Positions 3,445 through 34,593 of a stretch of 64,000 nt of DNA are shown one piece after another. A program made the position numbers and the translations under genes. The notes beneath the pieces were generated by a model. The model was not told the DNA's origin. It worked only from the letters and a program-made list of their open reading frames with translations, and did not search any database. Within the stretch, counting starts at the first letter, position 1. Each line of letters begins with the position of its first letter. Source of the DNA: an uncultured Chlorobiaceae bacterium. Lineage in GTDB: Bacteria > Bacteroidota > Ignavibacteria > UBA10030 > SZUA-254. The stretch is taken from contig CAZQSM010000001.1 of NCBI GenBank assembly GCA_964596065.1, forward strand, positions 1,623 to 65,622, written 5' to 3'.

Positions 3445-3708
3445 ATGCATAGATTGATCAAAACACTGACGGGGGGACTCATCCTGTCTGTTGCTTTGGT
3501 TTTGATGAGTTGTTCGAGCGCGCCATCCTCGGAAGAACTCAAGGCGCTCAACGACCTGAAGGCCGAGGTGGCCTCGATGGAAAAATCAACGGCTGACAGG
3601 CAGAAGGAGCTCGCGAACCTCGAACGCCAGCTTGCCGAACAGAACGGAAAACTCCAGCAATGCCAGTCTGACCAGGAAGCGGTCAAGAAAGCGCTGGGTG
3701 CCCAATGA
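3445..3708 (+). CDS. Small coiled-coil lipoprotein (Lpp/OprI-like)
   Basis: AGGAG RBS; signal peptide ending LMS-C; remainder is a heptad coiled coil. Confidence 0.7.
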   Translation: MHRLIKTLTGGLILSVALVLMSCSSAPSSEELKALNDLKAEVASMEKSTADRQKELANLERQLAEQNGKLQQCQSDQEAVKKALGAQ

Positions 3709-4457: not shown

Positions 4458-4520
4458 CCGATGAGGCCCGGAAGGGAAACCTTCACCCTGGCACGCACCG
4501 TCGGAATGAAACAGAGCAGG

Positions 4521-4561
4521 GCCCTCCACGCCGGACGACGGCGGGGAGGGCTTTGCCTTTT
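4521..4561 (+). terminator. Terminator-like hairpin after the lipoprotein-LysM pair
   Basis: GCCCTCCACGCCG-gacga-CGGCGGGGAGGGC followed by TTTGCCTTTT. Confidence 0.55.
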
Positions 4562-5608: not shown

Positions 5609-5612
5609 GGGG

Positions 5613-6371: not shown

Positions 6372-6529
6372 TCCATCCTCCGGTCAATGTTGACTCAATA
6401 TAACGGATCGACGGCTCCCCTCCAATCGACCGGGACCCGGATTGCGCGGGCGTTTCCCGGTTTGAAATCGGACCGGTTTTTTATATATTTTCGCGTTCCA
6501 TCCATCCAGATCACAGGTATCAGTTCACG

Positions 6530-7666: not shown

Positions 7667-7669
7667 CCG

Positions 7670-9532: not shown

Positions 9533-12500
9533 ATGCTAACCCGACTCACTCTCCTATGCTCTCTTCTCCTTCTCCCGGCGCTCCTTCTTGCCCAGGGGAC
9601 AGGGAAAGTCAAGGGAATCGTCACCGATCAGGCCAGTAACGAGCCCCTGATCGGCGCGAGCGTATCCATCGAGGGGACTTCCCTCGGGGCGGCCACCGAT
9701 ATTGACGGAAATTACATCATCCTGAACGTCCCCGCCGGCACCCACACGGTGCGGACGAGTTACGTCGGGTACCAGATGGTGTCGGTGAGCAACATCCTCG
9801 TCAACTCCGGCCTTACCACGGAGCTCGACTTCAAGCTCACGAGCGAAGAGCTGCAGCTGCAGCCGGTCGAGATCATCGCCGACCGCCCCCTCGTGAACAA
9901 GAGCGCGACGAACGCGGTCCGCATTACGACCGGAGAGGATATCCAGAACATGGCGGTCCGGGGAGTGAACCAGATCATCGCCCTCTCGCCCGGCGTCGTC
10001 CTCCAGGACAACACGGTGTTCATCCGCGGCGGCAGGCAGGACGAAGTCGGATTTTACCTTGAAGGAGTGCCGATCACGAACAAGTTCGTGGGCGGCCGGG
10101 CCGTGACGCTCGTCCAGGACGCAATCGAGGAGATCCAGGTCCAGGCGGGCGGTTACAACGCGGAATTCGGCGGCGCCAACTCCGGCATCATCCAGACGCA
10201 GCTGCGCTCCGGGACCAGCGACTGGAAGGCCAGCGCGCAGTACTCTTCCGACAACCTCGGGTTCAAGAGCACCGAGGGCCTCTACAAAAGCGAAAAGACG
10301 CTCGGGACATATTCATACGGCTTCAACGAATTCACGGGGACGCTGAGCGGCCCCCTGGGGAGCGAAAACGTCAAGCTCTTCGGGCTCTTCAACTACAATT
10401 TCAACCGGGACCAGACCCCCCAACCCTATCCCGGGATCAACCTCGGCGTCATCTCCGATCCCGTGACCGGCGATTCGATCGATCTGACGTACCCGGCCGG
10501 GCCGGTGTACGGCAACTCGCTGGAACAGTTCACCTACACCGGGACGCTCTCGTTCGACCTGAAACCGGTGTTACTGCGCTTCGGCGGAACCTACACCGCG
10601 GGGACGAGCTTCAACGCGTTCAGCGCGGCGAGGGTCGCCGGCAATATCGCGAACATCCTCAACACCGGCAGGATCGAGAAGGTCGAGACGGGGAACGGCG
10701 CGTACAACCTGAAGGTCACGCACCTGCTCAACCCGACGACCTACTACGACATCAACATCGGGTACTTCCGGCAGACCTCCAACACGTTCGATCCGCTGCT
10801 CGGGGACGATTTCCTCAACTACGGCGACAGCCTGACGAACGCAGCGGTCGGCGTGACCAATTTCGCGAGCCGTTACCTCCGGCCCACGCGCGTCAACATC
10901 TTCACGTTCTCCTTCAACGCCCCGGGCGACCTCGTTGCCGACTACGTCCGGTTCAAGCGCGAAAACATCTCGCTGTCCGGCGGCATCACGTCGCAGATGT
11001 CCCAGCACTCCCTGAAAGTGGGGGGGGAGTTCCAGCGGTACGCGATGAGAAATTACAGCTTCGGCAATGAAGGCGTGTTCGCGCTCGCCGGCCTGATCGC
11101 GCAGAACGACGCCCTCGCCGCCAACGACCCGAACAAACTGACGCTGGAACAGATCCTCAAGCGGAGGGGCGTCAACAATTTCGGGTACGACGTGTTCGGC
11201 GCCGAGAACGACGAGGGGGGAAGCCTGTTCAGCCTGTTCGACGTGTATCCCGACGGCGGGCTCTCCAGGGCGAAATACCCCGTCTTCGCGGCGATCTACC
11301 TGCAGGACAAGATCGAGTTCCGGGACCTCGTGCTGAACCTCGGCCTCCGGTACGATTACATCAACAGCGACAGCTACGCGTTCGTCGACCCGGAGCACCC
11401 GGAACTGGCGATCAACAAGACGACGAACGAGTTCAATATGAACGGCCTCTACCGGGTGGCCCCCTACAAGGCGGTCAGCCCGAGGATCGGCATGGCGTTC
11501 CCGGTCACCGACCGGACGGTGTTCCACGCGCAATTCGGGAAATTCGTCCAGCAGTCGAGGCTCCGCGACGTCTACCAGGGGTATTACGCGACGGGAGCCA
11601 ACCTCGGCGGAGGGTTCTTCATCCCCGCGCCGGTGGGCTTCGACATCCGCCCGACCCGGACGACACAGTATGAGATCGGGTTCACGCAGCAAGTCAGCGA
11701 TTTCGCGTCGTTCGACATCACCGGATACTACAAGGACATCCAGGATCAGATCGTCTACGATCAGCAGAACGCCGGCACCGGATCCCCGTTCGGGTCGTAC
11801 TTCATCCTCCGCAACGGCGATTTCGCGACCACCAAGGGGGTCGAGATGACCTTCAACATGCGGAGGATCAAGAGGGTGCAGCTCAACGCGAACCTCTCGT
11901 TCAACGACGCGCAGGGCACCGGCTCGTTCCCCAATTCGAACCGGGGAGTCGTGGGCGCGCCGCTCGACGGCGTCACGGTGTTCAAGCCGCAGTACGTCAC
12001 GCCGCTGGAGTACAACAACTCCATACGCGGCAGCATCAACCTCGATTACCACTTCGGGAAGAACGACGGTCCGCCCGCGCTCCAGCAGTTCGGCGGCGCA
12101 CTCCTGACGACCTTCAACAGCGGCCATCCGTACACGGCGGGCATCGGCGGCGCGGACCTCGAAGGGGACGCGCGCGACCGGCAGCCCACCCAGCCGTTGA
12201 ATTCGTCCTCCACACCGTGGTTTTTCCAGAGCGACCTCAGGCTCGACAAGAGCTTCACCATCGCGGACCGCCTGAACGCCACCATTTACTTCCTGGTCAC
12301 GAACATCTTCGACACGAAGAACGTCACGAACGTCTTCCTGAGGACCGGGACGGCGGATGACGACGGCTACCTGAGCGATCCGGAGCTCGGCGGGCAGCTG
12401 ATCCAGACGTACGGCCAGGACTACGCCGACATGTACCGGGCCATCAACATCGATTATTACGAACAATATCAGAACGCGGGCGGATTGAACACCGTCCCGT

Positions 12501-12553
12501 TCCTCTTCGGTCCGCCGAGGCAGGTCCGGTTCGGCATCAGGCTGGACTATTAA
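9533..12553 (+). CDS. TonB-dependent outer-membrane transporter with N-terminal carboxypeptidase-regulatory-like domain
   Basis: Signal peptide; GKVKGIVTD..EPLIGASV..GAATDIDG N-domain; plug FIRGGRQDEV..GGYNAEFG; barrel motifs QDKIEF..NLGLRYDY, SPRIGMAFP; C-terminal RQVRFGIRLDY. Confidence 0.92.
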   Translation: MLTRLTLLCSLLLLPALLLAQGTGKVKGIVTDQASNEPLIGASVSIEGTSLGAATDIDGNYIILNVPAGTHTVRTSYVGYQMVSVSNILVNSGLTTELDFKLTSEELQLQPVEIIADRPLVNKSATNAVRITTGEDIQNMAVRGVNQIIALSPGVVLQDNTVFIRGGRQDEVGFYLEGVPITNKFVGGRAVTLVQDAIEEIQVQAGGYNAEFGGANSGIIQTQLRSGTSDWKASAQYSSDNLGFKSTEGLYKSEKTLGTYSYGFNEFTGTLSGPLGSENVKLFGLFNYNFNRDQTPQPYPGINLGVISDPVTGDSIDLTYPAGPVYGNSLEQFTYTGTLSFDLKPVLLRFGGTYTAGTSFNAFSAARVAGNIANILNTGRIEKVETGNGAYNLKVTHLLNPTTYYDINIGYFRQTSNTFDPLLGDDFLNYGDSLTNAAVGVTNFASRYLRPTRVNIFTFSFNAPGDLVADYVRFKRENISLSGGITSQMSQHSLKVGGEFQRYAMRNYSFGNEGVFALAGLIAQNDALAANDPNKLTLEQILKRRGVNNFGYDVFGAENDEGGSLFSLFDVYPDGGLSRAKYPVFAAIYLQDKIEFRDLVLNLGLRYDYINSDSYAFVDPEHPELAINKTTNEFNMNGLYRVAPYKAVSPRIGMAFPVTDRTVFHAQFGKFVQQSRLRDVYQGYYATGANLGGGFFIPAPVGFDIRPTRTTQYEIGFTQQVSDFASFDITGYYKDIQDQIVYDQQNAGTGSPFGSYFILRNGDFATTKGVEMTFNMRRIKRVQLNANLSFNDAQGTGSFPNSNRGVVGAPLDGVTVFKPQYVTPLEYNNSIRGSINLDYHFGKNDGPPALQQFGGALLTTFNSGHPYTAGIGGADLEGDARDRQPTQPLNSSSTPWFFQSDLRLDKSFTIADRLNATIYFLVTNIFDTKNVTNVFLRTGTADDDGYLSDPELGGQLIQTYGQDYADMYRAINIDYYEQYQNAGGLNTVPFLFGPPRQVRFGIRLDY

Positions 12554-12598
12554 TTGACAACGTCGACGATACTCCACCAAAAACAGGAGCGAATGAAT

Positions 12599-15500
12599 AT
12601 GAAACGCACTCTCTTCACGATACTCGCCGTCCTGCTGGGCCTCGGCCTGACGCACTCCGGCGCCGCGAGCGCGGCGGGGGGGGACAAGCAGGTTCGACAG
12701 AAGGTTTCGACCCCCTCGGGGACACCCATCAGGGCGTACCTGAACATCAATAACATCTCCACGGTGTTCAAGAACACCGGAATCTCCGATATCGACGTCC
12801 AGGAGGCGAATTCAGGTCTCGTCTTTCCGAAGGGATCGAGGAAGACGGCGGTGTACGCCTCGGGGTTCCTCTGGGGAGGGAAGGTGGGGAGTGAAGTCAG
12901 GGTCGGTGGATCGGCATACCGCGAGGGGATGCAGGGGGGGAAAATCCTGAGTCCGGGCGTCGCGGAGAGTCCCGATCTTCCGAAGAACCGCATCTACAGG
13001 GTCCGTCCGGATGAGCAACCGGGACCGGTCGACGCGAACCTCTCCTCGGAGGTGGCAGACGAGGGGATCCCGGAGGACGCGATCCGCACCCAGTACGAGA
13101 CGGATTGGACGGAATGGCCCGCCGGCGACGGCGCGCCGTACACCGACGTCGACGATAACGGCAGTTATGATCCGAACGTCGATATTCCCGGCGTCCCGGG
13201 CGCCGATCAGACGATCTGGTATGTCGCCAACGACGTCAACTCGACGCTCACGACCAACCTCTACGGGTCGAACCCGATGGGCATCGAGATGCAGGTGACG
13301 GTCTGGGCGTACGCGCAGCAGGGCGCCCTGGGAAACATGTTCTTCCGTAAGTACGTCATCATCAACAAGAGCCTGAGCCCGATCGACAGCATGTACGTCT
13401 CGATGTGGTCCGATATCGACCTGGGGAACTCGACGGACGATTTCGCGGGGTGCGACACCACGCTCAGCCTCGGCTACTGCTACAACGCCAACGCGAACGA
13501 CGCGACGTACAACCCGCTCCCCCCGCCGGCGGTGGGATTCGACTTTTTCCAGGGTCCGCTCGTCGACGCGCCGGGCGAGACGGGGATTTCGAACGGCCAG
13601 GTGATCGCCGACAAGAAAAACCTGCCGATGACGGCGTTCTATTATTTCGCCCGTGGCGACGCCTCGGTCACCGATCCGACGCAGGGTTCGTACGAGGGAA
13701 CGACGCAGTTCTATAATTTCTTCCAGGGGAAGATCGGCAGGACCGGGGTCTTGTTCGAAGATCCGCACACCAACCAATCGACGACGTTCGCCCTTGCCGG
13801 CGATCCCCAGACCCGTTCCGGATGGCTCGACGGCGACCTGCTCCCCGCCGGCGACCGCCGCATCGGCCTCGCCTCCGGACCGTTCACGATGGCGGTCGGA
13901 GACACGCAGGAGATCGTCGTCGCTGAAATTGTCGCCGGCGCGATCCCGGGCGTGGACCGGATATCCGCGATCGGCCTCCTGAAGTTCTACGACCTCCAGG
14001 CGCAGCTCGCGTACGACAACTTCTTCCGACTCCCGACGCCGCCCCCGGCCCCGAACGTGACGGTGGCGGAACTCGACAGGGAGATCGTGCTCGATTGGTC
14101 GAAGGACGCCAACCAGGTGAACCTGACGGAGACGTCGGACATCAAGGGGTACAAGTTCCAGGGATACAACGTCTACCAGCTTCCCTCCGCGTCGGCCAGC
14201 ATTTCGGAGGGTGTCCGCGTCGAGACGTTCGACATCAACGACGGCATCGGGAAAATCTTCGACCAGGTGTTCGATCCCAAAACCGGGTCGGTGGTTTCAC
14301 TCCCTGTCCAGTTCGGCAACGACACGTACATCCAACGGTTCCTCTCGATCAGGCAGGACGCGATAAAACAGCAGCCGCTGGTCAACGGCATCAGATACTA
14401 TTTCGCCGTGACGGCCTATAATTACAATCCCGATCCGCTGGCGGTCCCGAACAACCTCGAAACGCCGTTGAGGGTGATCGCGGTGACGCCGCACACCCTG
14501 AATCCGGGTGTCTCGCTGGGGGCCGGAAACGGCGGATCGATCGTGCCGGACCACAACGGCACCGCGGACGGTGATGTGACGGTGACGATCGTGGATCCGA
14601 CCGCGACGACAGGCGACGAATACCAGATCTACTTCACTCAACGGGAAGAGATTCGCGACGCCGAGGGCGACTGGGTGCCGTCGAGCACGATCCAGGCGCG
14701 CAGCCGGTCCACCGCCGGCCCCGATACCGTGGTAAATTCAACGATCGACATCGCGGGTGTATACGGGGTGGTCCCGGGGCAACTCCAGCTTCACTTCGCC
14801 CTGACCGTCGAATCACCCGAGGGGGCCTGGGTCGACGGGATCACGCTGACCTTCCCGTCCGGTGTCACGATCCTCAGCGCCCCATCCTTCGAGGCGGGGG
14901 GCGGGGACATTTTTCCGCAGATCGTGGGAAACCAGATCCGAATGGGCCTGATCGACCACGAATACACGGAAAACGGCGTCTTCCACGGCGGCGAAGAATG
15001 GGACATCCTCGTCCAGGGTCCGCTGCCGCTCCCGGTCGACTGGGTGGTGTTCGATGACGGGTATCTCGGCACGCCCCTCGACGCGCAGGGGACGACCACC
15101 GTCACCACGGTCGGGAACGTGTCCCGGACTGCAAAATACTGGAATCTTAAAAACGTCAACACGGGTGTCGTAAAACTCGAGAACCAATCCCTGATCAACG
15201 GGATCGACACATTCCCCGATCGCGACGATATTTCCACGAACATCGGAAATCCCGCCTCACCGGTCGTGGATGGTTTCCAGACGATGCTGAACGTCAATTA
15301 TGCCGCTCCCCTGACTTTTTTCAATGTATCGGTGAATGGGGAGTCGATACCGATCGCGGAAGGGACGGCAGGCGCCCTCGGACAGCGATGGACCGGGAGT
15401 AATTTCTCGGTGACGGACTACGGGTACTTTGGTATCGATCCGACGTCGCTCGGAGCGGCCGGTTACGGATCGACCTCCGTCAACGACCTCCAGCAGGACT

Positions 15501-16336
15501 ATGAATTCCGCTGGACGGGCGTCGAGGGCGATTCGGTGATCGGGGGACAGACGGTCAAGGTGATCAAGTCGGGCGGGTCGATCGCGACACTCTACGGGGC
15601 GAGGCTCTTCAGCATCGCGAACCATCCGCTGAATCCGAACCCGGGGTCGACGGCGCCGTTCCTCGTCCGGATACCGTTCGAAGTCTGGAACAAGGACAAG
15701 GGGATTCAGATCAACTATGAGTTTTACGATCGGGCGCAATCCAACCCGGCGGCCGACGGTTTCTACGTATGGAACCCGAACGCGCGTGTCTACGCCCAGA
15801 TCCTCGACACCCCGTACGACTCGACCCACATCGCCAACGGTTCGACGGGCGGGTCTGACGCCGACTCCTACACGTGGAACAACGTCTGGTACCAGTCCAA
15901 CTGGACGGTCGGTGATGTGGTCGAGATCGACTACGTCAACCCGATCCAGATCGGCGTGGACACGTATAATTTCACGACGACGGCGCCAGGGTACTCCGCG
16001 AATACGGCCAGGGCGCAGGTGGACGAGATCAACGTCTTTCCGAATCCATACTACGGGGTGAACACGGAGGAACTGAACAAGTACCAGCGGTTCGTGACGT
16101 TCACGCACCTGCCGGCGAAGGCGACGCTCAGGATCTTCAACCTCGCGGGCGGGCTGGTCAGGACGATCGAAAAGGACGATCCGGGCCAGTTCCAGCGCTG
16201 GGACCTGGCGAACTCCTCGGGCCTTCCCGTGGCCAGCGGTTTCTACGTCGTCTACATCGACCTGCCGGAGTTGGGCACGACGAAGATCGTCAAGCTGGCG
16301 ATCATCCAGGAACGCCAAATCCTCGACCGATTCTAA
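12599..16336 (+). CDS. Large secreted protein of unknown function with a T9SS-type C-terminal sorting domain
   Basis: AGGAG RBS then MKRTLF signal peptide; DVDDNG Ca-binding-like motif; FnIII-like segment after PTPPPAP; C-terminal INVFPNPY..FTHLP..RIFNLAG..WDL..VASG..K. Confidence 0.75.
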   Translation: MKRTLFTILAVLLGLGLTHSGAASAAGGDKQVRQKVSTPSGTPIRAYLNINNISTVFKNTGISDIDVQEANSGLVFPKGSRKTAVYASGFLWGGKVGSEVRVGGSAYREGMQGGKILSPGVAESPDLPKNRIYRVRPDEQPGPVDANLSSEVADEGIPEDAIRTQYETDWTEWPAGDGAPYTDVDDNGSYDPNVDIPGVPGADQTIWYVANDVNSTLTTNLYGSNPMGIEMQVTVWAYAQQGALGNMFFRKYVIINKSLSPIDSMYVSMWSDIDLGNSTDDFAGCDTTLSLGYCYNANANDATYNPLPPPAVGFDFFQGPLVDAPGETGISNGQVIADKKNLPMTAFYYFARGDASVTDPTQGSYEGTTQFYNFFQGKIGRTGVLFEDPHTNQSTTFALAGDPQTRSGWLDGDLLPAGDRRIGLASGPFTMAVGDTQEIVVAEIVAGAIPGVDRISAIGLLKFYDLQAQLAYDNFFRLPTPPPAPNVTVAELDREIVLDWSKDANQVNLTETSDIKGYKFQGYNVYQLPSASASISEGVRVETFDINDGIGKIFDQVFDPKTGSVVSLPVQFGNDTYIQRFLSIRQDAIKQQPLVNGIRYYFAVTAYNYNPDPLAVPNNLETPLRVIAVTPHTLNPGVSLGAGNGGSIVPDHNGTADGDVTVTIVDPTATTGDEYQIYFTQREEIRDAEGDWVPSSTIQARSRSTAGPDTVVNSTIDIAGVYGVVPGQLQLHFALTVESPEGAWVDGITLTFPSGVTILSAPSFEAGGGDIFPQIVGNQIRMGLIDHEYTENGVFHGGEEWDILVQGPLPLPVDWVVFDDGYLGTPLDAQGTTTVTTVGNVSRTAKYWNLKNVNTGVVKLENQSLINGIDTFPDRDDISTNIGNPASPVVDGFQTMLNVNYAAPLTFFNVSVNGESIPIAEGTAGALGQRWTGSNFSVTDYGYFGIDPTSLGAAGYGSTSVNDLQQDYEFRWTGVEGDSVIGGQTVKVIKSGGSIATLYGARLFSIANHPLNPNPGSTAPFLVRIPFEVWNKDKGIQINYEFYDRAQSNPAADGFYVWNPNARVYAQILDTPYDSTHIANGSTGGSDADSYTWNNVWYQSNWTVGDVVEIDYVNPIQIGVDTYNFTTTAPGYSANTARAQVDEINVFPNPYYGVNTEELNKYQRFVTFTHLPAKATLRIFNLAGGLVRTIEKDDPGQFQRWDLANSSGLPVASGFYVVYIDLPELGTTKIVKLAIIQERQILDRF

Positions 16337-16367
16337 CACGATGACCTTACTTGCAAAGGAGCTTACA

Positions 16368-17402
16368 ATGAAACGACTAATCGGCTTTTTGATCGTCGTC
16401 GTCCTGGGCCTCGTAACGCTGCACGAAGGCATCGCCGGACCCGGAAACCGGGCCGGAACGGGAGGGGCGGCGCAGCTGCTCGTCCCCGTCGGGGCGAGGG
16501 ACCTCGCGATGGGCGGCTCGACCATCTCCACGACCCGGGGTATCGAGTCGCTCTTCTGGAACCCCGCCGGGGTGGCCAGGAGCGACAATTCCGCAAACCT
16601 CATCTTCTCGCATATGTCGTACATCGCCGACATCGGCGTGGAGTATGGGGCGGTATCCGGTAAATTCGGGGACCTCGGCACGTTCGCACTCAGCGTGAAG
16701 TCGCTTTCCGTCGGGGACATCCCGGTGACCACCACCGAAAATCCGGACGGTACGGGCCAAAACTACTCACCGCAATTCTTCACGGCCGGTCTCACCTACT
16801 CCAGGATGCTCAGCGACAGGATCTCCGTCGGGTTGACGACGAACATCATCTCGGAGAGGATATCGGACGTCAGCGCCTCCGGGGTAGCGTTCAATGTCGG
16901 TGTCATCTACGATAACCTCGCGGATTTCCAGGGCCTGAGCCTCGGCGTGGTGGTGAAGAACATCGGTCCGCAGATGAAATACGACGGGCCGGCACTCTAC
17001 CAGGTGGGCGACGTGGCGGGGCAGAACCGGCCTCCCCAGTACCTGAAGATCGACACGGCGCCGTTCGAGCTTCCCGCGTCGATCGAGATCGGGCTCGGGT
17101 ATCGTTCGACGGTGAGTGAAAACGCCGACCTGCTCTTCTCCGGCGCATTCCAGAGCAACAACTTTTCGCAGGACGAATACCGCCTCGGTGCCGAGGCCGC
17201 GATCAACAAGATGTTCTTCATCCGCGGAGGGGCCTCGTTCGCGCCCGACACCCCCGACGACGAGGAGTACATCTACGGCTTCACCGTCGGCGGCGGCATC
17301 CAGTACGATCTCGGCGACGCGAACATCGCCGTCGATTACGCCTTCAGGGACACGGAATTTTTCTCGGGGAATCACATCATTGCGGTGCGGCTCGGTTTCT
17401 AG
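16368..17402 (+). CDS. PorV/PorQ-family outer-membrane beta-barrel
   Basis: Signal peptide; L.VPVGAR..AMGG, FWNPAG, alternating beta-strands, C-terminal F. Confidence 0.82.
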   Translation: MKRLIGFLIVVVLGLVTLHEGIAGPGNRAGTGGAAQLLVPVGARDLAMGGSTISTTRGIESLFWNPAGVARSDNSANLIFSHMSYIADIGVEYGAVSGKFGDLGTFALSVKSLSVGDIPVTTTENPDGTGQNYSPQFFTAGLTYSRMLSDRISVGLTTNIISERISDVSASGVAFNVGVIYDNLADFQGLSLGVVVKNIGPQMKYDGPALYQVGDVAGQNRPPQYLKIDTAPFELPASIEIGLGYRSTVSENADLLFSGAFQSNNFSQDEYRLGAEAAINKMFFIRGGASFAPDTPDDEEYIYGFTVGGGIQYDLGDANIAVDYAFRDTEFFSGNHIIAVRLGF

Positions 17403-20559: not shown

Positions 20560-20588
20560 TTGACTCTCGCGGGAATCCCTCTTATATT
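20560..20588 (+). promoter_or_regulatory. sigma70-type promoter driving the riboswitch transcript
   Basis: TTGACT - 17 nt - TATATT. Confidence 0.75.
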
Positions 20589-20874: not shown

Positions 20875-20908
20875 ACCCGGCCGTCCCCGCGATGGCCGGG
20901 TTTTTTTT
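20875..20908 (+). terminator. Riboswitch expression-platform terminator
   Basis: ACCCGGCCGTC-cccgc-GATGGCCGGGT followed by a T run. Confidence 0.8.
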
Positions 20909-22904
20909 GTCCACACTCCGCCGCCATATCGCCCTGTTCATCCTCACCTGCGCCAGCCTTCAGGCCCGCGTCGATTCCGTGGACGCGTCAGGGCGGGTCG
21001 CCGGGGACACGGTGTATCGATACGGCGAAGTGGTGGTGTCCGCGGAGCGATATCCGCTGTCGGCCCGGAGCGCGGGAACCGTGATGTTCGCGGCGAGCCC
21101 CACCGGGTCGTGGCAATTCGAGGGCCCCGGGGGGGCGCTGGCCCCGATCAGGAATCTCCACCTCATGGGGTACGGCGGGGGGATGGCCCTCCAGACCCTT
21201 TCCATCCGCGGCATGGGTTCAGAGCATTCGCTCGTCCTCTGGAACGGCCATCCGGCCGGCAACATGCAAACCGGCGTTTCCGATTTCAACCTTTTCAACG
21301 CCGCCGACCTCGAGGAGATCCGCGTGGTCCCGGGGGGCGCCTCGGCGTTGCACGGGAGCGGCGCCGTGGGAGGCGTGGTGAACCTGGTCCCCCGGTTTCC
21401 CTACTCCTCGCAACGGAGCGTCGAATTCGGCGCACGCTCCGGGTCGTTCCGCGACTCCCGCTTCATGGGGAGGGTCACGGTGCGGCCCGACTCGGCACTC
21501 GGAATCTCCGCGCGGTTCGGCAGGTCGCGCTCCCGGGGCGACTTCAGGTTCAGGGACACTGAACAGGACCGCGACGTTGCCCGGGAAAACAGTGACGTGG
21601 TGTCACATTCGTTCTCCCTCGCCGCCGGATGGAACCGCCCCGATCGGGACCGGCTGGGAATGATGATCACCGCGACGTTGCTCGACCAGGGTACGCCAGG
21701 TCCCTGGTCGGCGAACCTCCCCCAATCGGGAGCCAGGAGGAACGACCGGAGGTACCTCGGCGCGCTCTCGTGGGAATCAGCCCCCTCGGGCCGGTGGACG
21801 GTCACGGCGACGGGGAGCTTCGATTCGCAGTACGAGCGGTACCTCGACACCGACGGCCCAAATCCGGCGGACAATTTCTATCGGACCGCCCGGGTCGGCG
21901 CGTCGACGCAGTTCCGCTACCAGGCCGGGCCGGACTGGCTGTTGCAGGCGGGAACGGACCTGCATCACGTTGAGGCCGCGGGGAACGCCATCGACGGGAG
22001 CAGGTCACGCGACGGCGCCGCCCTCTGCGCCTCGATGTCGTGGGCGATCAACACCGGTGGCCGGCTCACCGGCACGGTTACGCCCTCCCTCCGGTGGGAG
22101 GGGGTCAGCGGGTTCGATCCGCACCCGAGCCCGAAACTGGGCCTGAACCTGGAAGGGCGCGGAGAGGCGTTTTCACTCCGTCTGCACGCGACGGCGGGCA
22201 GTGGGAGGAGGGACCCGACCATGAATGAACTTCATTATTCCGGGGAGGGGGGCGTGGGAAACAGCCGACTCGGGCCGGAAACGTCTGTGAGTTTTGACGC
22301 GGGCATCGGGGGGTGGGTGGGTGGCCCCGGAGACGGGATCGAATGGGACCTGACCCGCTACCTGATCCGCATGGATGGTCGGATTCAATGGGTCCCGACG
22401 TCAAATCCGAGGGTGTGGAAACCGGAGAACATCGGCAGAACCCGGTCGGAGGGATGGGAGGCGGGGGTCGGATGGAAACCGTTTCCGGGAGAGCTGGAAT
22501 TGCACGGAGATTACTCAACAATCAACGCGAGGAAGGCAAGGCTAACACCATTTGGTGCAACGGAATACGCGGAACAACTGATTTATATACCCCTCGATAA
22601 AGGCTCGGTCGGAATCCTCCTCGGGCGCCGGGACATCAATGGCTGGCTTCGATCGATCGCCCTGCGCGTAGAGGCGATCCACACCGGTGAACGCTATGTG
22701 CTGGATGACCAGTCCGTCTCACTCCCGGGACACCGGCTCATCAACGGTTCGCTCGCGACGGAAATCTCCCTGGGGGGATGGGGGGACGTGGTCCTCACCT
22801 ACGCCGCGGATAACCTCTCCGATGTCTCGTACGTCGTCATGCCCGGATACCCGATGCCAGGGTTCAGCCAATACATCTCAATCCAATACTCCATAGCCAT
22901 TTAA
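20892..22904 (+). CDS. btuB: BtuB-like TonB-dependent cobalamin receptor
   Basis: Plug motifs LSIRGMGSEHSLVLWNG and GGASALHGSGAVGGVVNL; barrel; directly under the B12 riboswitch. The start may be TTG 20907 (MSTLRRHIALFILTCASLQA signal peptide). Confidence 0.85.
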   Translation: MAGFFLSTLRRHIALFILTCASLQARVDSVDASGRVAGDTVYRYGEVVVSAERYPLSARSAGTVMFAASPTGSWQFEGPGGALAPIRNLHLMGYGGGMALQTLSIRGMGSEHSLVLWNGHPAGNMQTGVSDFNLFNAADLEEIRVVPGGASALHGSGAVGGVVNLVPRFPYSSQRSVEFGARSGSFRDSRFMGRVTVRPDSALGISARFGRSRSRGDFRFRDTEQDRDVARENSDVVSHSFSLAAGWNRPDRDRLGMMITATLLDQGTPGPWSANLPQSGARRNDRRYLGALSWESAPSGRWTVTATGSFDSQYERYLDTDGPNPADNFYRTARVGASTQFRYQAGPDWLLQAGTDLHHVEAAGNAIDGSRSRDGAALCASMSWAINTGGRLTGTVTPSLRWEGVSGFDPHPSPKLGLNLEGRGEAFSLRLHATAGSGRRDPTMNELHYSGEGGVGNSRLGPETSVSFDAGIGGWVGGPGDGIEWDLTRYLIRMDGRIQWVPTSNPRVWKPENIGRTRSEGWEAGVGWKPFPGELELHGDYSTINARKARLTPFGATEYAEQLIYIPLDKGSVGILLGRRDINGWLRSIALRVEAIHTGERYVLDDQSVSLPGHRLINGSLATEISLGGWGDVVLTYAADNLSDVSYVVMPGYPMPGFSQYISIQYSIAI

Positions 22905-22913
22905 GGCAGAACA

Positions 22914-23936
22914 ATGAAACAATTCATCGTGCTCCCGCTCCTCGCGATGACGCTCGCCGCGTCGGGGTGCCGGACGGCGGGGACACAGGAGCCGGATGTC
23001 CGCCCAGCCGGCTCCGGGACATACGTGGTGAACGAGGGGGGCTTCGCGGGAGGGGGAAACCTGAGTTTTTACGATCCGGTCGCCGGAAGTATCTCCAATG
23101 ACGTCGTCCGAAACGCGGATTCGTGGCTTTTCCCCAACGACATCCTCATCCGGTCGGGGAAAATCTTCGTCGCGGTCAACGGGAGCGACCGGATCGACAT
23201 CATCGACCCGGACGACGATTCCGTGAGGTCGTCGATCGTCTTCCCGCCGGGGACCGGACCGGGGTACCTGATCACATCAGGCGACCGGATCTACTGCGCC
23301 AATTATGACGGGACGGTCAGCTCGATCGACGCTTCGGTCGATTCGATCCTGTTCACCTCGGGGGCCGTCGTCGGCTTCCCGGGGGGGATCGTCGGCTCCG
23401 GAGGTCGGCTGTTCGTGTCAGACCTGGGCGGCTGGCCCGATACCGGCATCAGCGTGAAAGTCCTTGACGCGGCCACGCTGGGGATCGTCGGCTCCGTGCA
23501 TACCGGGGGAGGTCCGGCGCGAATGGTCCTCACGGGCGGTAAACTGTACGCGGTCGCATCGACCGCCGCGAAACTGTGGAGGATCGATCCGGTGACGCTG
23601 GAGATCGAGGATTCCTGCGACACCGGCTCGATCCCCGGAGACATCGTCACCGACGGCGCCAACCTCTACCTTCTGACAGGGGACGCCGTCGAGCGCGTCC
23701 CCCTCGCTCCGTTCGCCAGGGATACCGCCGCCCTGATCGGTCGGAGTGAGGGGCTCTTCCATTACGCGCTCGGGTTCGACGCGTCCTCGGGGCATTTGTA
23801 CGTTTCAACCATCCTGACGGCCGGCGGGTCGGGTTCCTTCAGCGTCTACTCGACCGCGGGAGCGAGGTTGGGTCCGCCCATCGCCGCCGGGATCTTTCCG
23901 GGCGCGTTCGGGTTCTATGTCGCCGATCCACCCTGA
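22914..23936 (+). CDS. BtuG-like (DUF5074/YncE-type) beta-propeller lipoprotein
   Basis: Lipobox ASG-C; YVVNEGGF, NLSFYD, IFVAVNGSDRIDII blade motifs; follows btuB. Confidence 0.78.
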   Translation: MKQFIVLPLLAMTLAASGCRTAGTQEPDVRPAGSGTYVVNEGGFAGGGNLSFYDPVAGSISNDVVRNADSWLFPNDILIRSGKIFVAVNGSDRIDIIDPDDDSVRSSIVFPPGTGPGYLITSGDRIYCANYDGTVSSIDASVDSILFTSGAVVGFPGGIVGSGGRLFVSDLGGWPDTGISVKVLDAATLGIVGSVHTGGGPARMVLTGGKLYAVASTAAKLWRIDPVTLEIEDSCDTGSIPGDIVTDGANLYLLTGDAVERVPLAPFARDTAALIGRSEGLFHYALGFDASSGHLYVSTILTAGGSGSFSVYSTAGARLGPPIAAGIFPGAFGFYVADPP

Positions 23937-23964
23937 GGAAGCGGATCCCCGGCCCCCGCGCAAG

Positions 23965-23993
23965 TTGCGCCGCATGCTATTTATCTGTATAAT
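23965..23993 (+). promoter_or_regulatory. sigma70-type promoter of the DUF6580-like gene
   Basis: TTGCGC - 17 nt - TATAAT. Confidence 0.65.
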
Positions 23994-24049
23994 CGTGATT
24001 GGATCCGCATAAAAACCGACGATACGATCTCACATAGGGAGAACCCTGA

Positions 24050-24571
24050 ATGATTCGCACACTATTTTTGCTCGGGCTCGCAACGCTCGCCGTCGTTTCC
24101 CGGCTGATCCCGCACCCGATGAATTTCGCCCCGATCGCGGCCCTCGCGCTCTTCGGAGGCGCGTATTTCGACCGCCGCTTCGCCTTCGCCCTGCCGTTCG
24201 CGGTCCTGATCGTCAGTGACGCGTTCCTCGGGTTCTATGAGGGAATCGAATGGGTGTACGGCAGCTTCTTCCTGATCAGTCTCATCGGCTGGAGCCTCCG
24301 GGGCAGGAAGAGCGTCGCGGCGATCGCCGGCGCGACGCTGCTGGGTTCCGTCCTCTTCTTCGTCGTGACGAATTTCGGCGTATGGCTCGGCGGGGGATTG
24401 TACACCCCCGACCTGGCGGGGCTCCTGAATTGTTACGTCGCCGCCATCCCCTTCTTCAGGAACAGCCTTGCCGGGGACGCGTTTTACGCCGCGGCGCTCT
24501 TCGGCGCGGCGGAACTGGCCTCGCGGCGGGTTCCCGCTCTCTCGGACGCCGGCGGGTCGGTCCGTGCCTGA
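24050..24571 (+). CDS. DUF6580-type small polytopic membrane protein (S-component-like putative transporter)
   Basis: RLIPHPMNFAPIAALALFGGAYF, SVLFFVVTNFGVW, CYVAAIPFFRNSLAGD; about 6 hydrophobic segments. Confidence 0.72.
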   Translation: MIRTLFLLGLATLAVVSRLIPHPMNFAPIAALALFGGAYFDRRFAFALPFAVLIVSDAFLGFYEGIEWVYGSFFLISLIGWSLRGRKSVAAIAGATLLGSVLFFVVTNFGVWLGGGLYTPDLAGLLNCYVAAIPFFRNSLAGDAFYAAALFGAAELASRRVPALSDAGGSVRA

Positions 24572-28018: not shown

Positions 28019-28056
28019 TTGCGCCCGCCCTCCGGGTTTCATTTTATCACAAACCG

Positions 28057-28067
28057 TGCTATCTTTG
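28057..28067 (+). promoter_or_regulatory. Extended -10 promoter immediately before metH
   Basis: TG-C-TATCTT(TG); predicted +1 falls at or next to the A of ATG 28073; no SD sequence. Confidence 0.55.
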
Positions 28068-28072
28068 ACGCC

Positions 28073-31000
28073 ATGAAGGCATTCAAGGAACTCCTCCGCG
28101 AAAAAATCGTCGTTTTCGACGGAGCGATGGGCACGAGCATCCAGGCCAGAAACCCCACCGCCGATGATTACGGCGGGGAGCGGCTCGCCGGCTGCAACGA
28201 ATACCTCGTCATCAGCAACCCCGCCATGATCCGCGACGTCCACGCCGGTTTTCTCGAGGCCGGGGCGGATGTCATCGAGACCGACACCTTCGGGGGCACC
28301 TCGGTGGTGCTCGCAGAGTACGGCCTCCAGGAGAGGGTGTTCGAGCTGAACCGGGCGGCGGCCAGGCTGGCGCGGGAGACGGCCGACCAGTTCACCACCC
28401 CGGCGAGGCCCCGATTCGTCGCCGGTTCCATGGGGCCGACCACGAAACTCCCGACACTCGGGCACATCACCTTCGGCGAGCTGGAACGGGCGTTTTACGA
28501 TCAGGCGGCGGGGCTCGCCGAGGGAGGCACGGACCTCCTCGTGATCGAGACGTGCCAGGACCTGCTGCAGGCCAAGGCGGCTCTCGCCGGCGTCCGGCGG
28601 TACTTCCTCGACGCGAGGCGATCGCTGCCGGTCATCGTCTCGGTCACCGTCGAACAGACCGGCACGATGCTCCTCGGCACGGAGATCGCCGCCGCACTCA
28701 CTGCGCTCGAACCGTTCAACCCCGACATGATCGGGATGAATTGCGCCACCGGACCGAAGGAGATGTCGGAGAGCATACGCCACCTCTGCCACCACAGCCC
28801 GTTTCCCGTCTTCGTGATGCCCAACGCCGGCATCCCTGAAAATGTCGGCGGGCTCGCGCACTACCACCTCACGCCCGCGGAGCTGGTCCGGTATCTCGGC
28901 CATTTCGTCTCCGACCTGGGCGTGTCGGCGGTCGGCGGCTGCTGCGGCACGACACCCGAACACATCCGCGCGCTCGCCGACGCGGTCGGCCGGGTCTCCC
29001 CGCCGGAGCGATCGTGGACGCCCGCGCCGGGGGTCTCGAGCCTCTACCAGCACGTGCCGTACCGGGTCCTCCCCGCGCCGACGCTCGTGGGCGAGCGGAC
29101 CAACGCCAACGGCAGCCGTAAATTCCGCGACCTCCTCGCCTCCGAGGACTGGGAGGCGATGACCGGGATGGGGAAGGAGCAGGAACGGGAAGGTGCGCAC
29201 CTGCTCGACGTCTGCGTCGCGTTCGTCGGTCGGGACGAATCGCGCGACATGCGCGAATTCATCCCACGGCTCAACACCCAGGTCACGCTTCCCCTGATGA
29301 TCGACTCGACCGAACCGCCGGTGATCGAGGAGGCCCTGATGCGGATCTCCGGGAAGGCGATCGTCAACTCGGTCAACTTCGAGGACGGCGGGGAGCGCCT
29401 CCACAAGGTGCTCGGCCTCTGCCGGAAATACGGCGCCGCGGTCGTGGCGCTCACCATCGACGAGCAGGGGATGGCGAAATCGGTGGAACGCAAGGAGGCG
29501 ATCGCCCGGCGGATCCTCGAAACGGCCACCGGGACGTACGGCATGCGCGGGAGCGACGTCATTTTCGATCCCCTGACGTTCACGCTCGGTTCCGGCGACC
29601 CGGAATTCCGGGACGCGGGAATCAACACGCTGAACGCGATCCGGGCCATCAAGAAGAATCATCCGGACATCCAGACCAGCCTCGGCGTGAGCAACATCTC
29701 CTTCGGCCTTTCCCCGCGCACCCGCACCGTGCTCAACAGCGTGTTCCTGCACCACGCGATCGAGGCGGGACTGGACATGGCCATCGTGCACGCGTCCAAA
29801 ATCGTTCCGCTCTACCGGATACCCGAGGAGGAGCGGGAGGCGTGCCGGAAGCTCATCTTCAACGACCGCGCCGGCGGCGCCGACCCGCTCGAGCGGCTCC
29901 TCGCGCTCTTCTCCGGACACGCGGCCGTGGAACGCGCCGCCCCGTCGCCGGACGCACCGATTGCGGAACGGCTCAAACGGCGGGTGGTCGACGGGAACAA
30001 GGTCGGGCTCCCCGCCGACCTCGACGTCGCGCTCACCACGACGCGGGCCCTCGACATCATCAACGACATCCTCCTCGACGGGATGAAAACCGTGGGGGAA
30101 CTCTTCGGAAGCGGGCAGATGCAGCTCCCGTTCGTGCTGCAATCGGCCGAGGTGATGAAAAGCGCCGTCGCCTACCTGGAACAATTCATGGACAAGGCCG
30201 ACAGCGCCACGAAGGGGACGATCGTGCTCGCCACGGTGAAGGGTGACGTCCACGACATCGGGAAAAACCTCGTCGACATCATCCTCACGAACAACGGCTA
30301 CCGGGTGATCAACCTCGGGATCCAGTGCGCGCTCGAGACGATGCTCGACGCGTGGCGGAACAACGGCGCTGACGCCATCGGGATGTCGGGGCTGCTCGTG
30401 AAGTCGACGCTCATCATGAAGGAAAACCTCGAGGTGCTCACGGAGCGGAGGCTGGAGATCCCGGTGATCCTCGGCGGAGCGGCGCTGACCCGCCGTTACG
30501 TCGAGCAGGACCTGGACTCCGTCTATCCCGGAAGGGTCTTTTATGCGCGAGACGCGTTCGACGGCCTGCGCCTCATGGAGCGGATCAGGGGAGGGGGGAT
30601 CGCCGGGCGCGGTCCGGCCGTCCTCCCGGCCCCGCCCGACGGCGCGGGGGCGGACATCGACACCGACGACCCAGGGACCGGCTTCGAGGCGAAGGTGCTG
30701 CTGGCGTCTGCGGAAGGACCCGGATCGCCCACTCCCCGGAGCGTGCCGTCGGCGCCGCCGGTCTCGGTCCCGTTCTACGGAACCAGGGTAGTGCGGGGGG
30801 TCCCGACCGGGGATGTGTACGACTATATCAACACGACGGCGCTGATCCGCGGGCAGTGGCAGGTGAAAAGGGGAACGCTCACTCCGGACGCCTACCGGAG
30901 GCTCCTCGAAGAAAAAATATACCCTGAGCTCGACCGGCTCAAGACCGAGGCGGGCCGCGAGGGGTTGATCAGGCCGGAGGTGGTCTACGGATACTATCCC

Positions 31001-31594
31001 TGCCGTCCGGAGGGCGACGACCTCGTCCTCTACGTCCCCGAGGGGCACGCCGACCCGTCGGACCGATGGGATCCGCGCGACGCCAGGCCGTTGCGGGAGA
31101 TCCTCCGGTTCAGCTTCCCCCGCCAGAAGCGGGACCGGCGGCTCTGCATCGCCGATTATTTTCACCCGTCCGCGCCGGACGGGTATGAGCTCATCGGCGT
31201 TCAGCTGGTGACCGTCGGAGCGAAGGCCTCCGAACACGCGAAGATGCTCTTCGACTCCGACCGCTACCGGGAGTACCTCTATTTCCACGGCCTGAGCGTT
31301 GAATCCGCCGAGGGCCTGGCCGAGTACTGGCACAAGGTCGTCAGGGGTGAAATGGGGATCGGGGGGGATGACGCGGCCGACATAAAAAAACTCTTCAGCC
31401 AGCACTACCGTGGATCCCGCTACAGCTTCGGGTACCCCGCTTGCCCGTCGCTCGAAGACCAGGCGAAACTTTTCGTCCTTCTTAAACCGGAGCGCATCGG
31501 CGTGACACTGACGGAGGAATTCCAGCTTGTCCCCGAACAGTCGACGTCCGCCATCATCGTCCACCACCCCGAAGCCCGATATTTCACCCTGTAA
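28073..31594 (+). CDS. metH: Cobalamin-dependent methionine synthase
   Basis: DGAMGT, GMNCA and GGCCG (Zn ligands), GERTNANGS, DVHDIGKN (B12-binding), RYSFGYPACP, PEQSTSA. Confidence 0.97.
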   Translation: MKAFKELLREKIVVFDGAMGTSIQARNPTADDYGGERLAGCNEYLVISNPAMIRDVHAGFLEAGADVIETDTFGGTSVVLAEYGLQERVFELNRAAARLARETADQFTTPARPRFVAGSMGPTTKLPTLGHITFGELERAFYDQAAGLAEGGTDLLVIETCQDLLQAKAALAGVRRYFLDARRSLPVIVSVTVEQTGTMLLGTEIAAALTALEPFNPDMIGMNCATGPKEMSESIRHLCHHSPFPVFVMPNAGIPENVGGLAHYHLTPAELVRYLGHFVSDLGVSAVGGCCGTTPEHIRALADAVGRVSPPERSWTPAPGVSSLYQHVPYRVLPAPTLVGERTNANGSRKFRDLLASEDWEAMTGMGKEQEREGAHLLDVCVAFVGRDESRDMREFIPRLNTQVTLPLMIDSTEPPVIEEALMRISGKAIVNSVNFEDGGERLHKVLGLCRKYGAAVVALTIDEQGMAKSVERKEAIARRILETATGTYGMRGSDVIFDPLTFTLGSGDPEFRDAGINTLNAIRAIKKNHPDIQTSLGVSNISFGLSPRTRTVLNSVFLHHAIEAGLDMAIVHASKIVPLYRIPEEEREACRKLIFNDRAGGADPLERLLALFSGHAAVERAAPSPDAPIAERLKRRVVDGNKVGLPADLDVALTTTRALDIINDILLDGMKTVGELFGSGQMQLPFVLQSAEVMKSAVAYLEQFMDKADSATKGTIVLATVKGDVHDIGKNLVDIILTNNGYRVINLGIQCALETMLDAWRNNGADAIGMSGLLVKSTLIMKENLEVLTERRLEIPVILGGAALTRRYVEQDLDSVYPGRVFYARDAFDGLRLMERIRGGGIAGRGPAVLPAPPDGAGADIDTDDPGTGFEAKVLLASAEGPGSPTPRSVPSAPPVSVPFYGTRVVRGVPTGDVYDYINTTALIRGQWQVKRGTLTPDAYRRLLEEKIYPELDRLKTEAGREGLIRPEVVYGYYPCRPEGDDLVLYVPEGHADPSDRWDPRDARPLREILRFSFPRQKRDRRLCIADYFHPSAPDGYELIGVQLVTVGAKASEHAKMLFDSDRYREYLYFHGLSVESAEGLAEYWHKVVRGEMGIGGDDAADIKKLFSQHYRGSRYSFGYPACPSLEDQAKLFVLLKPERIGVTLTEEFQLVPEQSTSAIIVHHPEARYFTL

Positions 31595-33285: not shown

Positions 33286-33598
33286 CGCGGAGGAATGGGT
33301 CCGGGTCGGCTCGATGCGCGAGCTCTCGCGCGTCGGCCGCGTGAGGGTCCAATCGGGCGGGAAGGACCTCATCCTGGTGATGTGCGACAGGCAGGTCTAC
33401 GCCTGCGACAATACCTGCGCGCACCAGCATTTTGCCATGCTCCACAGCGGAACGCTCAACGGTTGCCTCGTCACCTGCCCGATGCACGGCTGGACGTTCG
33501 ACGTCCGGACCGGGCGCTCGACCGCCGGCGAAGGACGGATCGCCACGTACGCGGTCCGGGTGCGTGGCGACGACGTGTTCATGCGGAGCGGCGCGTGA
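33257..33598 (+). CDS. Rieske [2Fe-2S] ferredoxin
   Basis: CAH..CPMHGWTFD; start taken as ATG 33257. Confidence 0.85.
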   Translation: MPRSGSTAPDAEEWVRVGSMRELSRVGRVRVQSGGKDLILVMCDRQVYACDNTCAHQHFAMLHSGTLNGCLVTCPMHGWTFDVRTGRSTAGEGRIATYAVRVRGDDVFMRSGA

Positions 33599-34593
33599 GC
33601 GGCGCGGTTCAGCCGGCCGCGGCAGGCGGCGCATCCCTGAAGGACTTCATACGGGCGAAGTCCCGCGAGCTCGGCATCGACCTTGTCGGATTCGCGCGGG
33701 TCACGGAACCGGGTGTGGAACGCGAACGCCTCGACCGGTGGTTCGAAGAGGGCCGGCACGGCACGATGGCCTGGATGGAGAAAAACCGGGAACGGCGCGC
33801 CGACCCGGCCCTGGTCCTCGGGGGCGTCAGGACGATCGTTTCGGCCGCCCTCAACTACGCGACGCCGCAGCGTCACTCGGGCGCTCCCGGGACCGGCAAA
33901 GTGTCGCGCTACGCGTGGGGGGACGATTACCATGACATCCTGGGGAACCGGCTCAAGGCGCTGCTGGCCGCCGTACAGGAGTTCGATCCGTCAGTCGGCG
34001 GGAAGTATTACGTGGACACCGGTCCCGTGATGGAGAAGGTCTGGGCCCAGCGGGCGGGTCTCGGATGGCAGGGAAAGCACACGAACCTGATTTCACAGGA
34101 GCTGGGGTCCTGGATCTTCCTGGGCGAGGTGCTCCTGACCGCGGAAATCGAACCTGACGCGCCCGAGACCGATCACTGCGGACAGTGTACGCTCTGCATC
34201 GAGGCGTGCCCTACCGGCGCGATCATCGAACCGTACCTGCTGGACGCCCGGCTGTGCATCTCGTACCTGACCATCGAACGGCGGGAACCGATACCCGACG
34301 ACCTCGAAGCCCTGCTCGACGGCTGGGTCTACGGGTGCGACGTCTGCCAGGACGTCTGCCCCTGGAACGATCGCGCGGTGGACTCCCCCGAGGGCGCGTT
34401 CGCGCCCCGGCCGGGGAACGTCGACCGGGACCTCCGTGCCTTGATCGAGATCTCGGAGGAGGATTTTCGGACGGAGTTCAGGAAGAGCCCGATGCGCCGG
34501 GCGGGACGCGAAGCGTTGTCCCGCACAGCCCGGGCGCTGCTGGACGCGGAAAACAACCACCATCATACGACAGATGAAAACCATGGAACGTAA
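33595..34593 (+). CDS. queG: tRNA epoxyqueuosine(34) reductase (cobalamin- and 2x4Fe-4S-dependent)
   Basis: VSRYAWGDDYH, VDTGP, GLGWQGK, CGQCTLCIEACP, CISYLTIE, GCDVCQDVCPWN; GTGA overlap with the Rieske gene. Confidence 0.95.
   Translation: MSGAVQPAAAGGASLKDFIRAKSRELGIDLVGFARVTEPGVERERLDRWFEEGRHGTMAWMEKNRERRADPALVLGGVRTIVSAALNYATPQRHSGAPGTGKVSRYAWGDDYHDILGNRLKALLAAVQEFDPSVGGKYYVDTGPVMEKVWAQRAGLGWQGKHTNLISQELGSWIFLGEVLLTAEIEPDAPETDHCGQCTLCIEACPTGAIIEPYLLDARLCISYLTIERREPIPDDLEALLDGWVYGCDVCQDVCPWNDRAVDSPEGAFAPRPGNVDRDLRALIEISEEDFRTEFRKSPMRRAGREALSRTARALLDAENNHHHTTDENHGT

Follow-up and report, generated by a model that had tools for sequence, protein, structure and literature searches.

The ATP-binding cassette (ABC) transporter BtuCDF is predicted in only about half of the B12-auxotrophic bacteria, and the proteins that take B12 across the inner membrane are mostly unidentified (PMC6072759). 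Among the carriers that have been described, BtuM of Thiobacillus denitrificans (6FFV, 8OVV, 8C7P) is a six-helix protein of the inner membrane, about 20 kDa in size, that has the S-component fold of energy-coupling factor (ECF) transporters. It occurs in Gram-negative B12 auxotrophs that have BtuB and neither BtuCDF nor an ECF module, its gene is linked to btuB, its invariant loop-3 cysteine (Cys80) ligates the cobalt, and it combines binding with decyanation chemistry; like BioY, it is a solitary S-component that supports uptake alone (PMC6072759). CbrT, in contrast, is the cobalamin S-component of ECF-CbrT of Lactobacillus delbrueckii, which works with an EcfAA'T ATPase module and was discovered through the gene cluster nrdJ-cbrS-cbrT-pduO (PMC5997447). 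At the outer membrane, the BtuB-BtuG loci of Bacteroides (8BLW, 8BMX, 8P97; PMC10404256) have a riboswitch in control of a gene for a TonB-dependent receptor, with the gene for a beta-propeller lipoprotein immediately behind it; btuFCD and genes for accessory binders (BtuH and others) come next. Here we describe a locus that starts in the same way but continues with a gene for a membrane protein of the family DUF6580 (PF20221). It lies in a stretch of 64,000 nucleotides, called the window throughout, from an uncultured Chlorobiaceae bacterium (Ignavibacteria; UBA10030; SZUA-254; assembly GCA_964596065.1, contig CAZQSM010000001.1, positions 1,623-65,622). We consider it probable, at odds of roughly three in four, that the DUF6580 protein is a solitary S-component-type inner-membrane importer of cobamides which completes a BtuG-BtuB-DUF6580 uptake route.

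A first-pass annotation of the window had read the locus as a riboswitch-controlled btuB and a btuG-like gene followed by an S-component-like gene, with no ABC or ECF ATPase or binding-protein gene nearby and with two genes for B12-dependent enzymes in the vicinity. Each of these elements is present (Table 1), the riboswitch lying just upstream of the interval that had been marked. The two enzyme genes, metH and queG, are confirmed by their Pfam domains and lie within 10 kb of the DUF6580 locus, and according to the annotation of the flanks there is no ABC or ECF gene among the genes flanking btuB, btuG and the DUF6580 gene.

The B12 economy of the host shows what is required of such a locus. 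The assembly is a metagenome-assembled genome (MAG) of 2.72 Mb that is 96% complete, and the genome-wide absences reported here hold within that limit. Cobamide users encoded in it are MetH, QueG and two enzymes of the methylmalonyl-CoA mutase family, in addition to a PduO-type adenosyltransferase; MetE and CobS were not found in the genome. Since B12-dependent enzymes are present and both MetE and CobS are missing, the host must import a finished cobamide. Also not found in the genome were a FecCD/BtuC-type permease, a BtuF-type binding protein, a BacA-type ABC transporter and EcfT (CbiQ family, PF02361), the component by which an ECF transporter would be recognized. A complete btuFCD set elsewhere in the genome, together with no B12 linkage for DUF6580, had been named beforehand as an outcome that would speak against a B12 carrier at this locus; btuFCD was searched for and not found, nor was any ECF module. 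We conclude that, within the limits of the MAG, the host is an obligate importer of finished cobamide that has no known inner-membrane B12 transporter. The sole other S-component-like gene of the genome is a solitary bioY (G000:C28:19048-19617, corresponding to L089:3049-3618), and this host appears to depend on S-components acting on their own, with no module.

The window protein matches PF20221 over almost the whole model (182.8 bits, with the cut-off at 27; positions 6-162 of the 162 in the model). The family is very large (3081 matches in 90% clusters; 5217 clusters at 50% identity) and is named 'DUF6580 family putative transport protein' at NCBI; our literature search, including searches for novel riboswitch-linked B12 transporters, found no paper that mentions it. 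Structure prediction and comparison with BtuM, which the first-pass annotation had proposed as a check, pointed to an S-component fold, and BtuM ranked first among the matches. The AlphaFold2 model, built from a 137-sequence alignment, has a predicted local distance difference test score (pLDDT) of 95 and a predicted template modelling (TM) score (pTM) of 0.89, and the structures that Foldseek ranks highest for it, at TM-scores of 0.54-0.65, are without exception BtuM or ECF S-components. VIA-align places BtuM first (Z 13.8, root mean square deviation 3.1 A over 157 residues), ahead of FolT (13.1), BioY (12.2), ThiT (11.9) and then PanT, RibU and CbiM (9.3). The 16 best chains are all BtuM or ECF S-components (Z 10.2-13.8); among the chains that are not S-components, one MreD chain reaches a Z of 9.5 and the remaining ones 5.9 at most. 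On the evidence of this model, the protein is predicted to have the six-helix fold of an ECF S-component. Weak matches to ECF_trnsprt were obtained for 7 of the 137 family members, the best at 4e-5.

Judging by the pattern of helices and by the positive-inside rule (basic residues 41-43 and 83-86), loops 1, 3 and 5 probably lie outside the cytoplasm. Nearly all of the conserved polar residues (R18, H22, N25, D57, Y70, N108, W112 and Y118) are found in these loops or at the outer ends of helices, which is where S-components bind their substrates: loop 1 contains a conserved motif, R-L-x-P-H-P-x-N-F, and the outer ends of helices 3 to 6 carry D57, Y70, N108, W112 and Y118. Loop 3 (residues 61-65) reads G-F-H/Y, with His in 71 and Tyr in 51 of the 137 sequences, and the sole frequent cysteine of the family is at position 128 in a different loop (102 Cys, 25 Ser and 6 Ala of 137). 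No usable match came from searching the protein atlas for named proteins that resemble DUF6580 but fall outside PF20221. One metagenomic protein of 783 amino acids (P0273) joins DUF6580 to Plug and TonB_dep_Rec domains; it most likely arose from adjacent genes merged by the gene caller or by a frameshift, and we do not use it as evidence.

How close, then, is the DUF6580 protein to the known carriers? With BtuM it shares the size, the predicted location and fold, the link of its gene to btuB and, in this host, the combination of B12 auxotrophy and BtuB with the absence of BtuCDF and of an ECF module. The two differ, however, in that there is no detectable sequence similarity between them, even by family profile, and in that BtuM's cobalt-ligating loop-3 cysteine is absent from DUF6580, whose loop 3 carries His or Tyr and whose Cys128 is replaced in a quarter of the family. 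They also differ in range, as BtuM is found mostly in alpha-, beta- and gamma-proteobacteria and DUF6580 in Bacteroidota, bacteria of the candidate phyla radiation (CPR), Acidobacteriota, Planctomycetota and Bdellovibrio. Thus, DUF6580 is no member of the BtuM family and would at best work like BtuM, the common setting of BtuB without BtuCDF or an ECF module being a functional analogy. CbrT has the S-component fold too, and its position in the nrdJ-cbrS-cbrT-pduO cluster is taken by DUF6580 in CPR and some gammaproteobacterial loci, yet CbrT works with an ECF module, and EcfT was not found in the host. HMMER matched the window protein to no solved chain, and its hallmark residues do not place it in the CbrT family. 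Solitary BioY carriers likewise operate without an ECF module, as the one in the host presumably does, but they differ in substrate. The DUF6580 family has no significant profile similarity to the host's own BioY: hhalign gives a probability of 1%, and the likeness is confined to a local P-H-x-P-x-F-T match in loop 1.

The link of the family to B12 comes from its gene context, which we followed through 80 DUF6580 loci that together span about 1.02 Mb and belong to Ignavibacteria, Bacteroidota, Acidobacteriota, Planctomycetota, Verrucomicrobiota, Elusimicrobia, Bdellovibrio, Proteobacteria and several CPR groups. Rfam detected B12 riboswitches in 6 of 9 diverse loci. An nhmmer profile that was seeded from the Rfam-found riboswitches and iterated gave 58 matches in 45 of the 80 loci, 55 of them on the DUF6580 strand; 39 loci have such a match upstream of the DUF6580 gene, and in 14 it precedes the gene by 120-380 nucleotides. 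Rfam in addition rescued 3 of 9 profile-negative loci, which brings the total to at least 48 of 80, where chance would lead one to expect about one such riboswitch per 1 Mb or so (one to a few per genome). The co-occurrence of DUF6580 with B12 riboswitches, another of the checks proposed at the outset, thus extends far beyond the window. The neighbouring genes point the same way: BtuB is encoded in 37 of the loci and BtuG in 8 (in each case plus the window), a BtuF-like protein in 10, a DUF71 PP-loop enzyme in 9, class II ribonucleotide reductase and DUF4430 in 7 each, PduO in 6, and CobO/BtuR and MetH in 5 each. The CPR and some gammaproteobacterial loci have the order NrdR-NrdJ-riboswitch-DUF4430-DUF6580-PduO. 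Closer to the window, in six genomes of the same family or order, riboswitch, btuB and the DUF6580 gene always occur together and btuG is optional; one of these relatives has the riboswitch directly before the DUF6580 gene and another the order riboswitch-DUF6580-riboswitch-btuB.

Some of the arrangements in these loci deserve mention in their own right. The tandem order riboswitch-DUF6580-riboswitch-btuB, in which the two genes each have their own cobalamin riboswitch and the second riboswitch follows the DUF6580 stop codon by about 110-160 nucleotides, was seen in L004, L005, L006, L009, L015, L020 and L088. The DUF71/COG2102 PP-loop enzyme recurs between btuB and DUF6580 (L003:6240-6932 and eight other loci); it was predicted in 2012 to act in B12 salvage (PMC3541065), in a paper that makes no mention of DUF6580. 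The BtuF-like genes lie beside the DUF6580 gene, for example at L003:6992-7990 next to L003:8001-8525, and also in L044, L055, L056, L069 and L071. Searches of the L003 and L069 genomes gave no credible FecCD, a tentative sign that BtuF might supply DUF6580 in these two organisms; an S-component-like carrier supplied by a binding protein would, if true, be unprecedented. In four acidobacterial or verrucomicrobial loci (L051, L054, L065 and L082, at about 1260-8500 in each), an operon of the type riboswitch-BtuF-(permease)-ABC ATPase, whose permease is putative and judged from gene order and size only, stands beside riboswitch-BtuB-DUF71-DUF6580. BtuFCD-type and DUF6580 systems coexist in these organisms, perhaps with different corrinoid preferences.

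A second line of evidence is the distribution of DUF6580 relative to FecCD, the family to which BtuC-type permeases belong, in 401 high-quality genomes of the phylum. DUF6580 alone was found in 141 genomes, FecCD alone in 211, both in 46 and neither in 3; DUF6580 is thus present in 47% of the Bacteroidota genomes sampled. The same division is seen at the level of families. FecCD prevails in f20 (85 of 86 genomes, DUF6580 in none), f21 (28 of 28, DUF6580 in none) and f7 (22 of 22, DUF6580 in 2), whereas DUF6580 prevails in f12 (8 of 8, FecCD in none), f11 (12 of 12, FecCD in 1), f17 (21 of 21, FecCD in 3) and f1 (3 of 3, FecCD in none). In the mixed families f3, f4, f24 and f28, a cross-reading of the family labels shows FecCD in 7 of the 9 genomes that lack DUF6580. 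The two are nearly complementary and almost never both missing, and the suggestion that DUF6580 would go with an absence of btuCD is borne out to the extent that it and the BtuC-type permease family largely exclude one another. A non-orthologous replacement of BtuCD predicts such a pattern, with one of the two families present in almost every genome.

Several observations weigh against a solitary B12 carrier. To begin with, the function of DUF6580 is inferred throughout from fold and context, as opposed to that of BtuM, which has been tested experimentally. No solved chain, the BtuM entries included, was matched by HMMER at E-values up to 10, with either the single sequence or the 137-sequence profile, and because no sequence similarity was detected the kinship to known B12 carriers is argued from fold and context only. 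A Z of about 13 between helical bundles is, according to the VIA-align tool note, not far over the background for such folds. In the 137-sequence alignment, read at the sequence level, no counterpart of BtuM's invariant cobalt-ligating cysteine is apparent. About 30 of the 80 loci have no riboswitch, several of them being short contigs. Moreover, DUF6580 and FecCD coincide in 46 genomes, the FecCD family extends to permeases for haem and siderophores, and genomes of related organisms do not count as independent samples; for the last two reasons the Fisher value of the DUF6580-FecCD comparison cannot be read as a probability. The four loci in which a BtuF-led ABC operon adjoins btuB-DUF71-DUF6580 show that the systems are no strict alternatives, and as DUF6580 lies beside BtuF or a BtuF-led operon in some genomes, 'replacement for BtuFCD' is not the whole story. 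Finally, in the window itself the DUF6580 gene has a conserved promoter of its own, described below, and riboswitch control of the gene is therefore a mere candidate in this genome.

Would a protein that merely handles the cobamide at the inner membrane, without moving it across, explain these data as well? DUF6580 might be a decyanase, a chaperone, a dock for BtuF or the binding part of a transporter with an unseen energising partner. BtuM itself pairs binding with decyanation (PMC6072759), and the BtuF-like neighbours in 10 of the 80 loci, the BtuF-led ABC operons in four of them and the presence of FecCD in 46 of the 187 DUF6580-positive genomes would all suit an accessory role. However, the host and 140 other genomes of the phylum sample lack any FecCD, and in the host the absence of EcfT, BtuF and a BacA-type transporter leaves no partner in sight. 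The near absence of genomes lacking both systems fits a stand-alone alternative to BtuCD instead, and the precedent of solitary BioY and BtuM shows that such proteins can support uptake alone. We therefore regard an accessory role as unlikely.

It is more doubtful still that DUF6580 is a carrier for some other B12-related compound, such as cobinamide only, a lower ligand or alpha-ribazole (as for CblT) or cobalt (as for CbiM). Cobalamin riboswitches do control S-component transporters of the CblT and CbiMNQO types as well, the DUF71 salvage enzyme is a frequent neighbour, and CbiM is among the fold matches. Yet precursors and cobalt would be useless to the host because CobS is missing, the CPR genomes place DUF6580 between the B12 binder DUF4430, NrdJ and PduO in what looks like a route for finished cobalamin, and the commonest partners, BtuB and BtuG, handle whole corrinoids. 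That the gene merely happens to follow btuG and encodes an unrelated housekeeping membrane protein belonging with carA, as its own promoter-like box, the gap after btuG and the position of carA next to it in same-family relatives might suggest, is already contradicted by riboswitch linkage, synteny and phyletic pattern, since DUF6580 is found linked to B12 riboswitches and genes again and again across many phyla and in varied gene orders, including a riboswitch directly before DUF6580, whereas its link to carA is limited to close relatives.

For a solitary cobamide importer, the uptake route in the host would run as follows. BtuG, a lipid-anchored beta-propeller at the cell surface, would capture the vitamin and hand it to BtuB, which would move it into the periplasm with energy supplied by TonB. 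DUF6580 would then carry the cobamide over the inner membrane. The corrinoid would most likely be bound in a pocket on the periplasmic side that is formed by the loop-1 motif together with the conserved residues that helices 3 to 6 carry at their outer ends, and would probably be released inside by a toppling movement that needs no ATPase. Uptake could be driven by the TonB-powered accumulation of the vitamin in the periplasm and by its trapping inside the cell, on MetH, QueG, the two mutases and the adenosyltransferase PduO. When B12 is plentiful, the cobalamin riboswitch would turn off btuB and btuG by premature termination, and the DUF6580 carrier of this lineage would probably continue to be made at a basal level, regardless of B12, from its own promoter.

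Beyond this host, we think it a reasonable if less secure proposition that DUF6580 is a third, independent and very large family of cobamide carriers with the S-component fold, and that bacteria without BtuCD import B12 over the inner membrane mainly by it, among them non-gut Bacteroidota, Ignavibacteria, CPR/Patescibacteria, Acidobacteriota, Planctomycetota and Bdellovibrio. Such carriers would operate without an ATPase and with the ligand set R18/H22/N25/D57/Y70/N108/W112/Y118 in place of BtuM's cysteine, and may pair with BtuF in some lineages. If this is true, DUF6580 fills the inner-membrane gap in B12 uptake for a large share of environmental bacteria, from abundant marine and soil Bacteroidota to CPR bacteria with their tiny genomes, and would allow B12 cross-feeding in microbiomes to be predicted better from genomes. 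It would also be a third natural way in which a six-helix protein passes a cofactor of 1.3 kDa without using ATP.

The expression of the DUF6580 gene in this lineage requires separate comment. A gap of 113 nucleotides separates it from the btuG-like gene, and no terminator was found between the two. The first-pass annotation had added the caveat that the gene has a promoter of its own in this gap, and this caveat holds. The consensus scan missed the site, as its -35 box matches at just 3 of 6 positions, but the -10 region, a GTATAATC box at 23986-23994, is kept before the DUF6580 gene in three relatives of the same family (L083, L084 and L085), that is in four genomes including the window. The box lies 45-90 nucleotides ahead of the DUF6580 start in spacers that are otherwise unalignable, and the spacer of L085 contains TTGACT-17-TATAAT. 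This suggests that a riboswitch-independent promoter is conserved in the family. We therefore reject the riboswitch as the sole control of DUF6580 here; the gene is probably served by a promoter of its own, and the riboswitch-controlled transcript may in addition extend into it.

The upstream part of the locus resembles its Bacteroides counterparts. The riboswitch is the only RF00174 match in the whole assembly, and its expression platform is of the classical terminator type. As the terminator hairpin and T-tract overlap the annotated btuB ATG at 20892, either the true start codon lies farther downstream, or the platform acts on two levels, against transcription as well as translation initiation. 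The receptor has a signal peptide and a TonB-box-like GEVVVSA; its best solved relatives are BtuB1, BtuB2 and BtuB3 of Bacteroides thetaiotaomicron (8bmx/8p97/8p98/8blw, E about 1e-14), and the best NCBIfam model is TIGR01779 (TonB-B12), at 74 bits against a cut-off of 600 and thus short of strict equivalog membership. We assign it as BtuB from these relatives, the presence of the Plug domain and its context behind a B12 riboswitch. The btuG-like gene begins 10 nucleotides past btuB, and its product matches the BtuG chains of BtuBG complexes (8ptf, 8bn0, 8p97_B, 8okv_B) with E-values of 1e-8 to 1e-6; a Pfam DUF5074 match of 23.3 bits stays under the cut-off of 27.2. Judged by its sequence, that is by the lipobox, the predicted beta-propeller, the place after btuB and the likeness to solved chains, the lipoprotein would qualify as a BtuG. 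The similarity to the Bacteroides chains is nevertheless low for both proteins (about 1e-14 for BtuB and about 1e-8 for BtuG), and the locus departs from those of Bacteroides where the DUF6580 gene takes the place of btuFCD, which was not found genome-wide.

Table 1. Features of the B12 locus and nearby genes for B12-dependent enzymes; positions are those of the window.
Feature	Position	Strand	Basis
Sigma-70-like promoter before the riboswitch, TTGACT-17-TATATT	20560..20588	+	Consensus scan; pattern match only
Cobalamin riboswitch aptamer RF00174	20603..20825	+	79.7 bits against a cut-off of 31.5, E 5e-18, full model 1-189
Expression platform: intrinsic terminator hairpin and T8 tract	20875..20908	+	Hairpin 20875-20901, 11 pairs, 8 GC
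BtuB-like TonB-dependent outer-membrane receptor, 670 amino acids	20892..22904	+	Plug domain; B. thetaiotaomicron BtuB relatives
BtuG-like beta-propeller surface lipoprotein, 340 amino acids	22914..23936	+	Lipobox LAASGC; matches to BtuG chains
Probable internal promoter of the DUF6580 gene, TTGCGC-17-TATAAT	23965..23993	+	GTATAATC box kept in relatives
DUF6580 protein, 173 amino acids, six membrane helices, candidate inner-membrane cobamide carrier	24050..24571	+	PF20221 and predicted S-component fold
metH, B12-dependent methionine synthase	28019..31594	+	All five MetH Pfam domains
queG, B12-dependent epoxyqueuosine reductase	33295..34593	+	QueG_DUF1730 and Fer4_16

The B12 locus is flanked upstream by a gene for gamma-glutamyltransferase (GGT) and downstream by carA, rsmI and a thioredoxin-like gene. 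Farther upstream, the window encodes a TonB-dependent receptor of the CarboxypepD_reg type (9533-12553), a 1260-amino-acid open reading frame without a Pfam match (12554-16336) and a PorV-like type IX secretion protein (16341-17402); the region 9533-17402 may be a locus for type IX secretion system cargo or for uptake.

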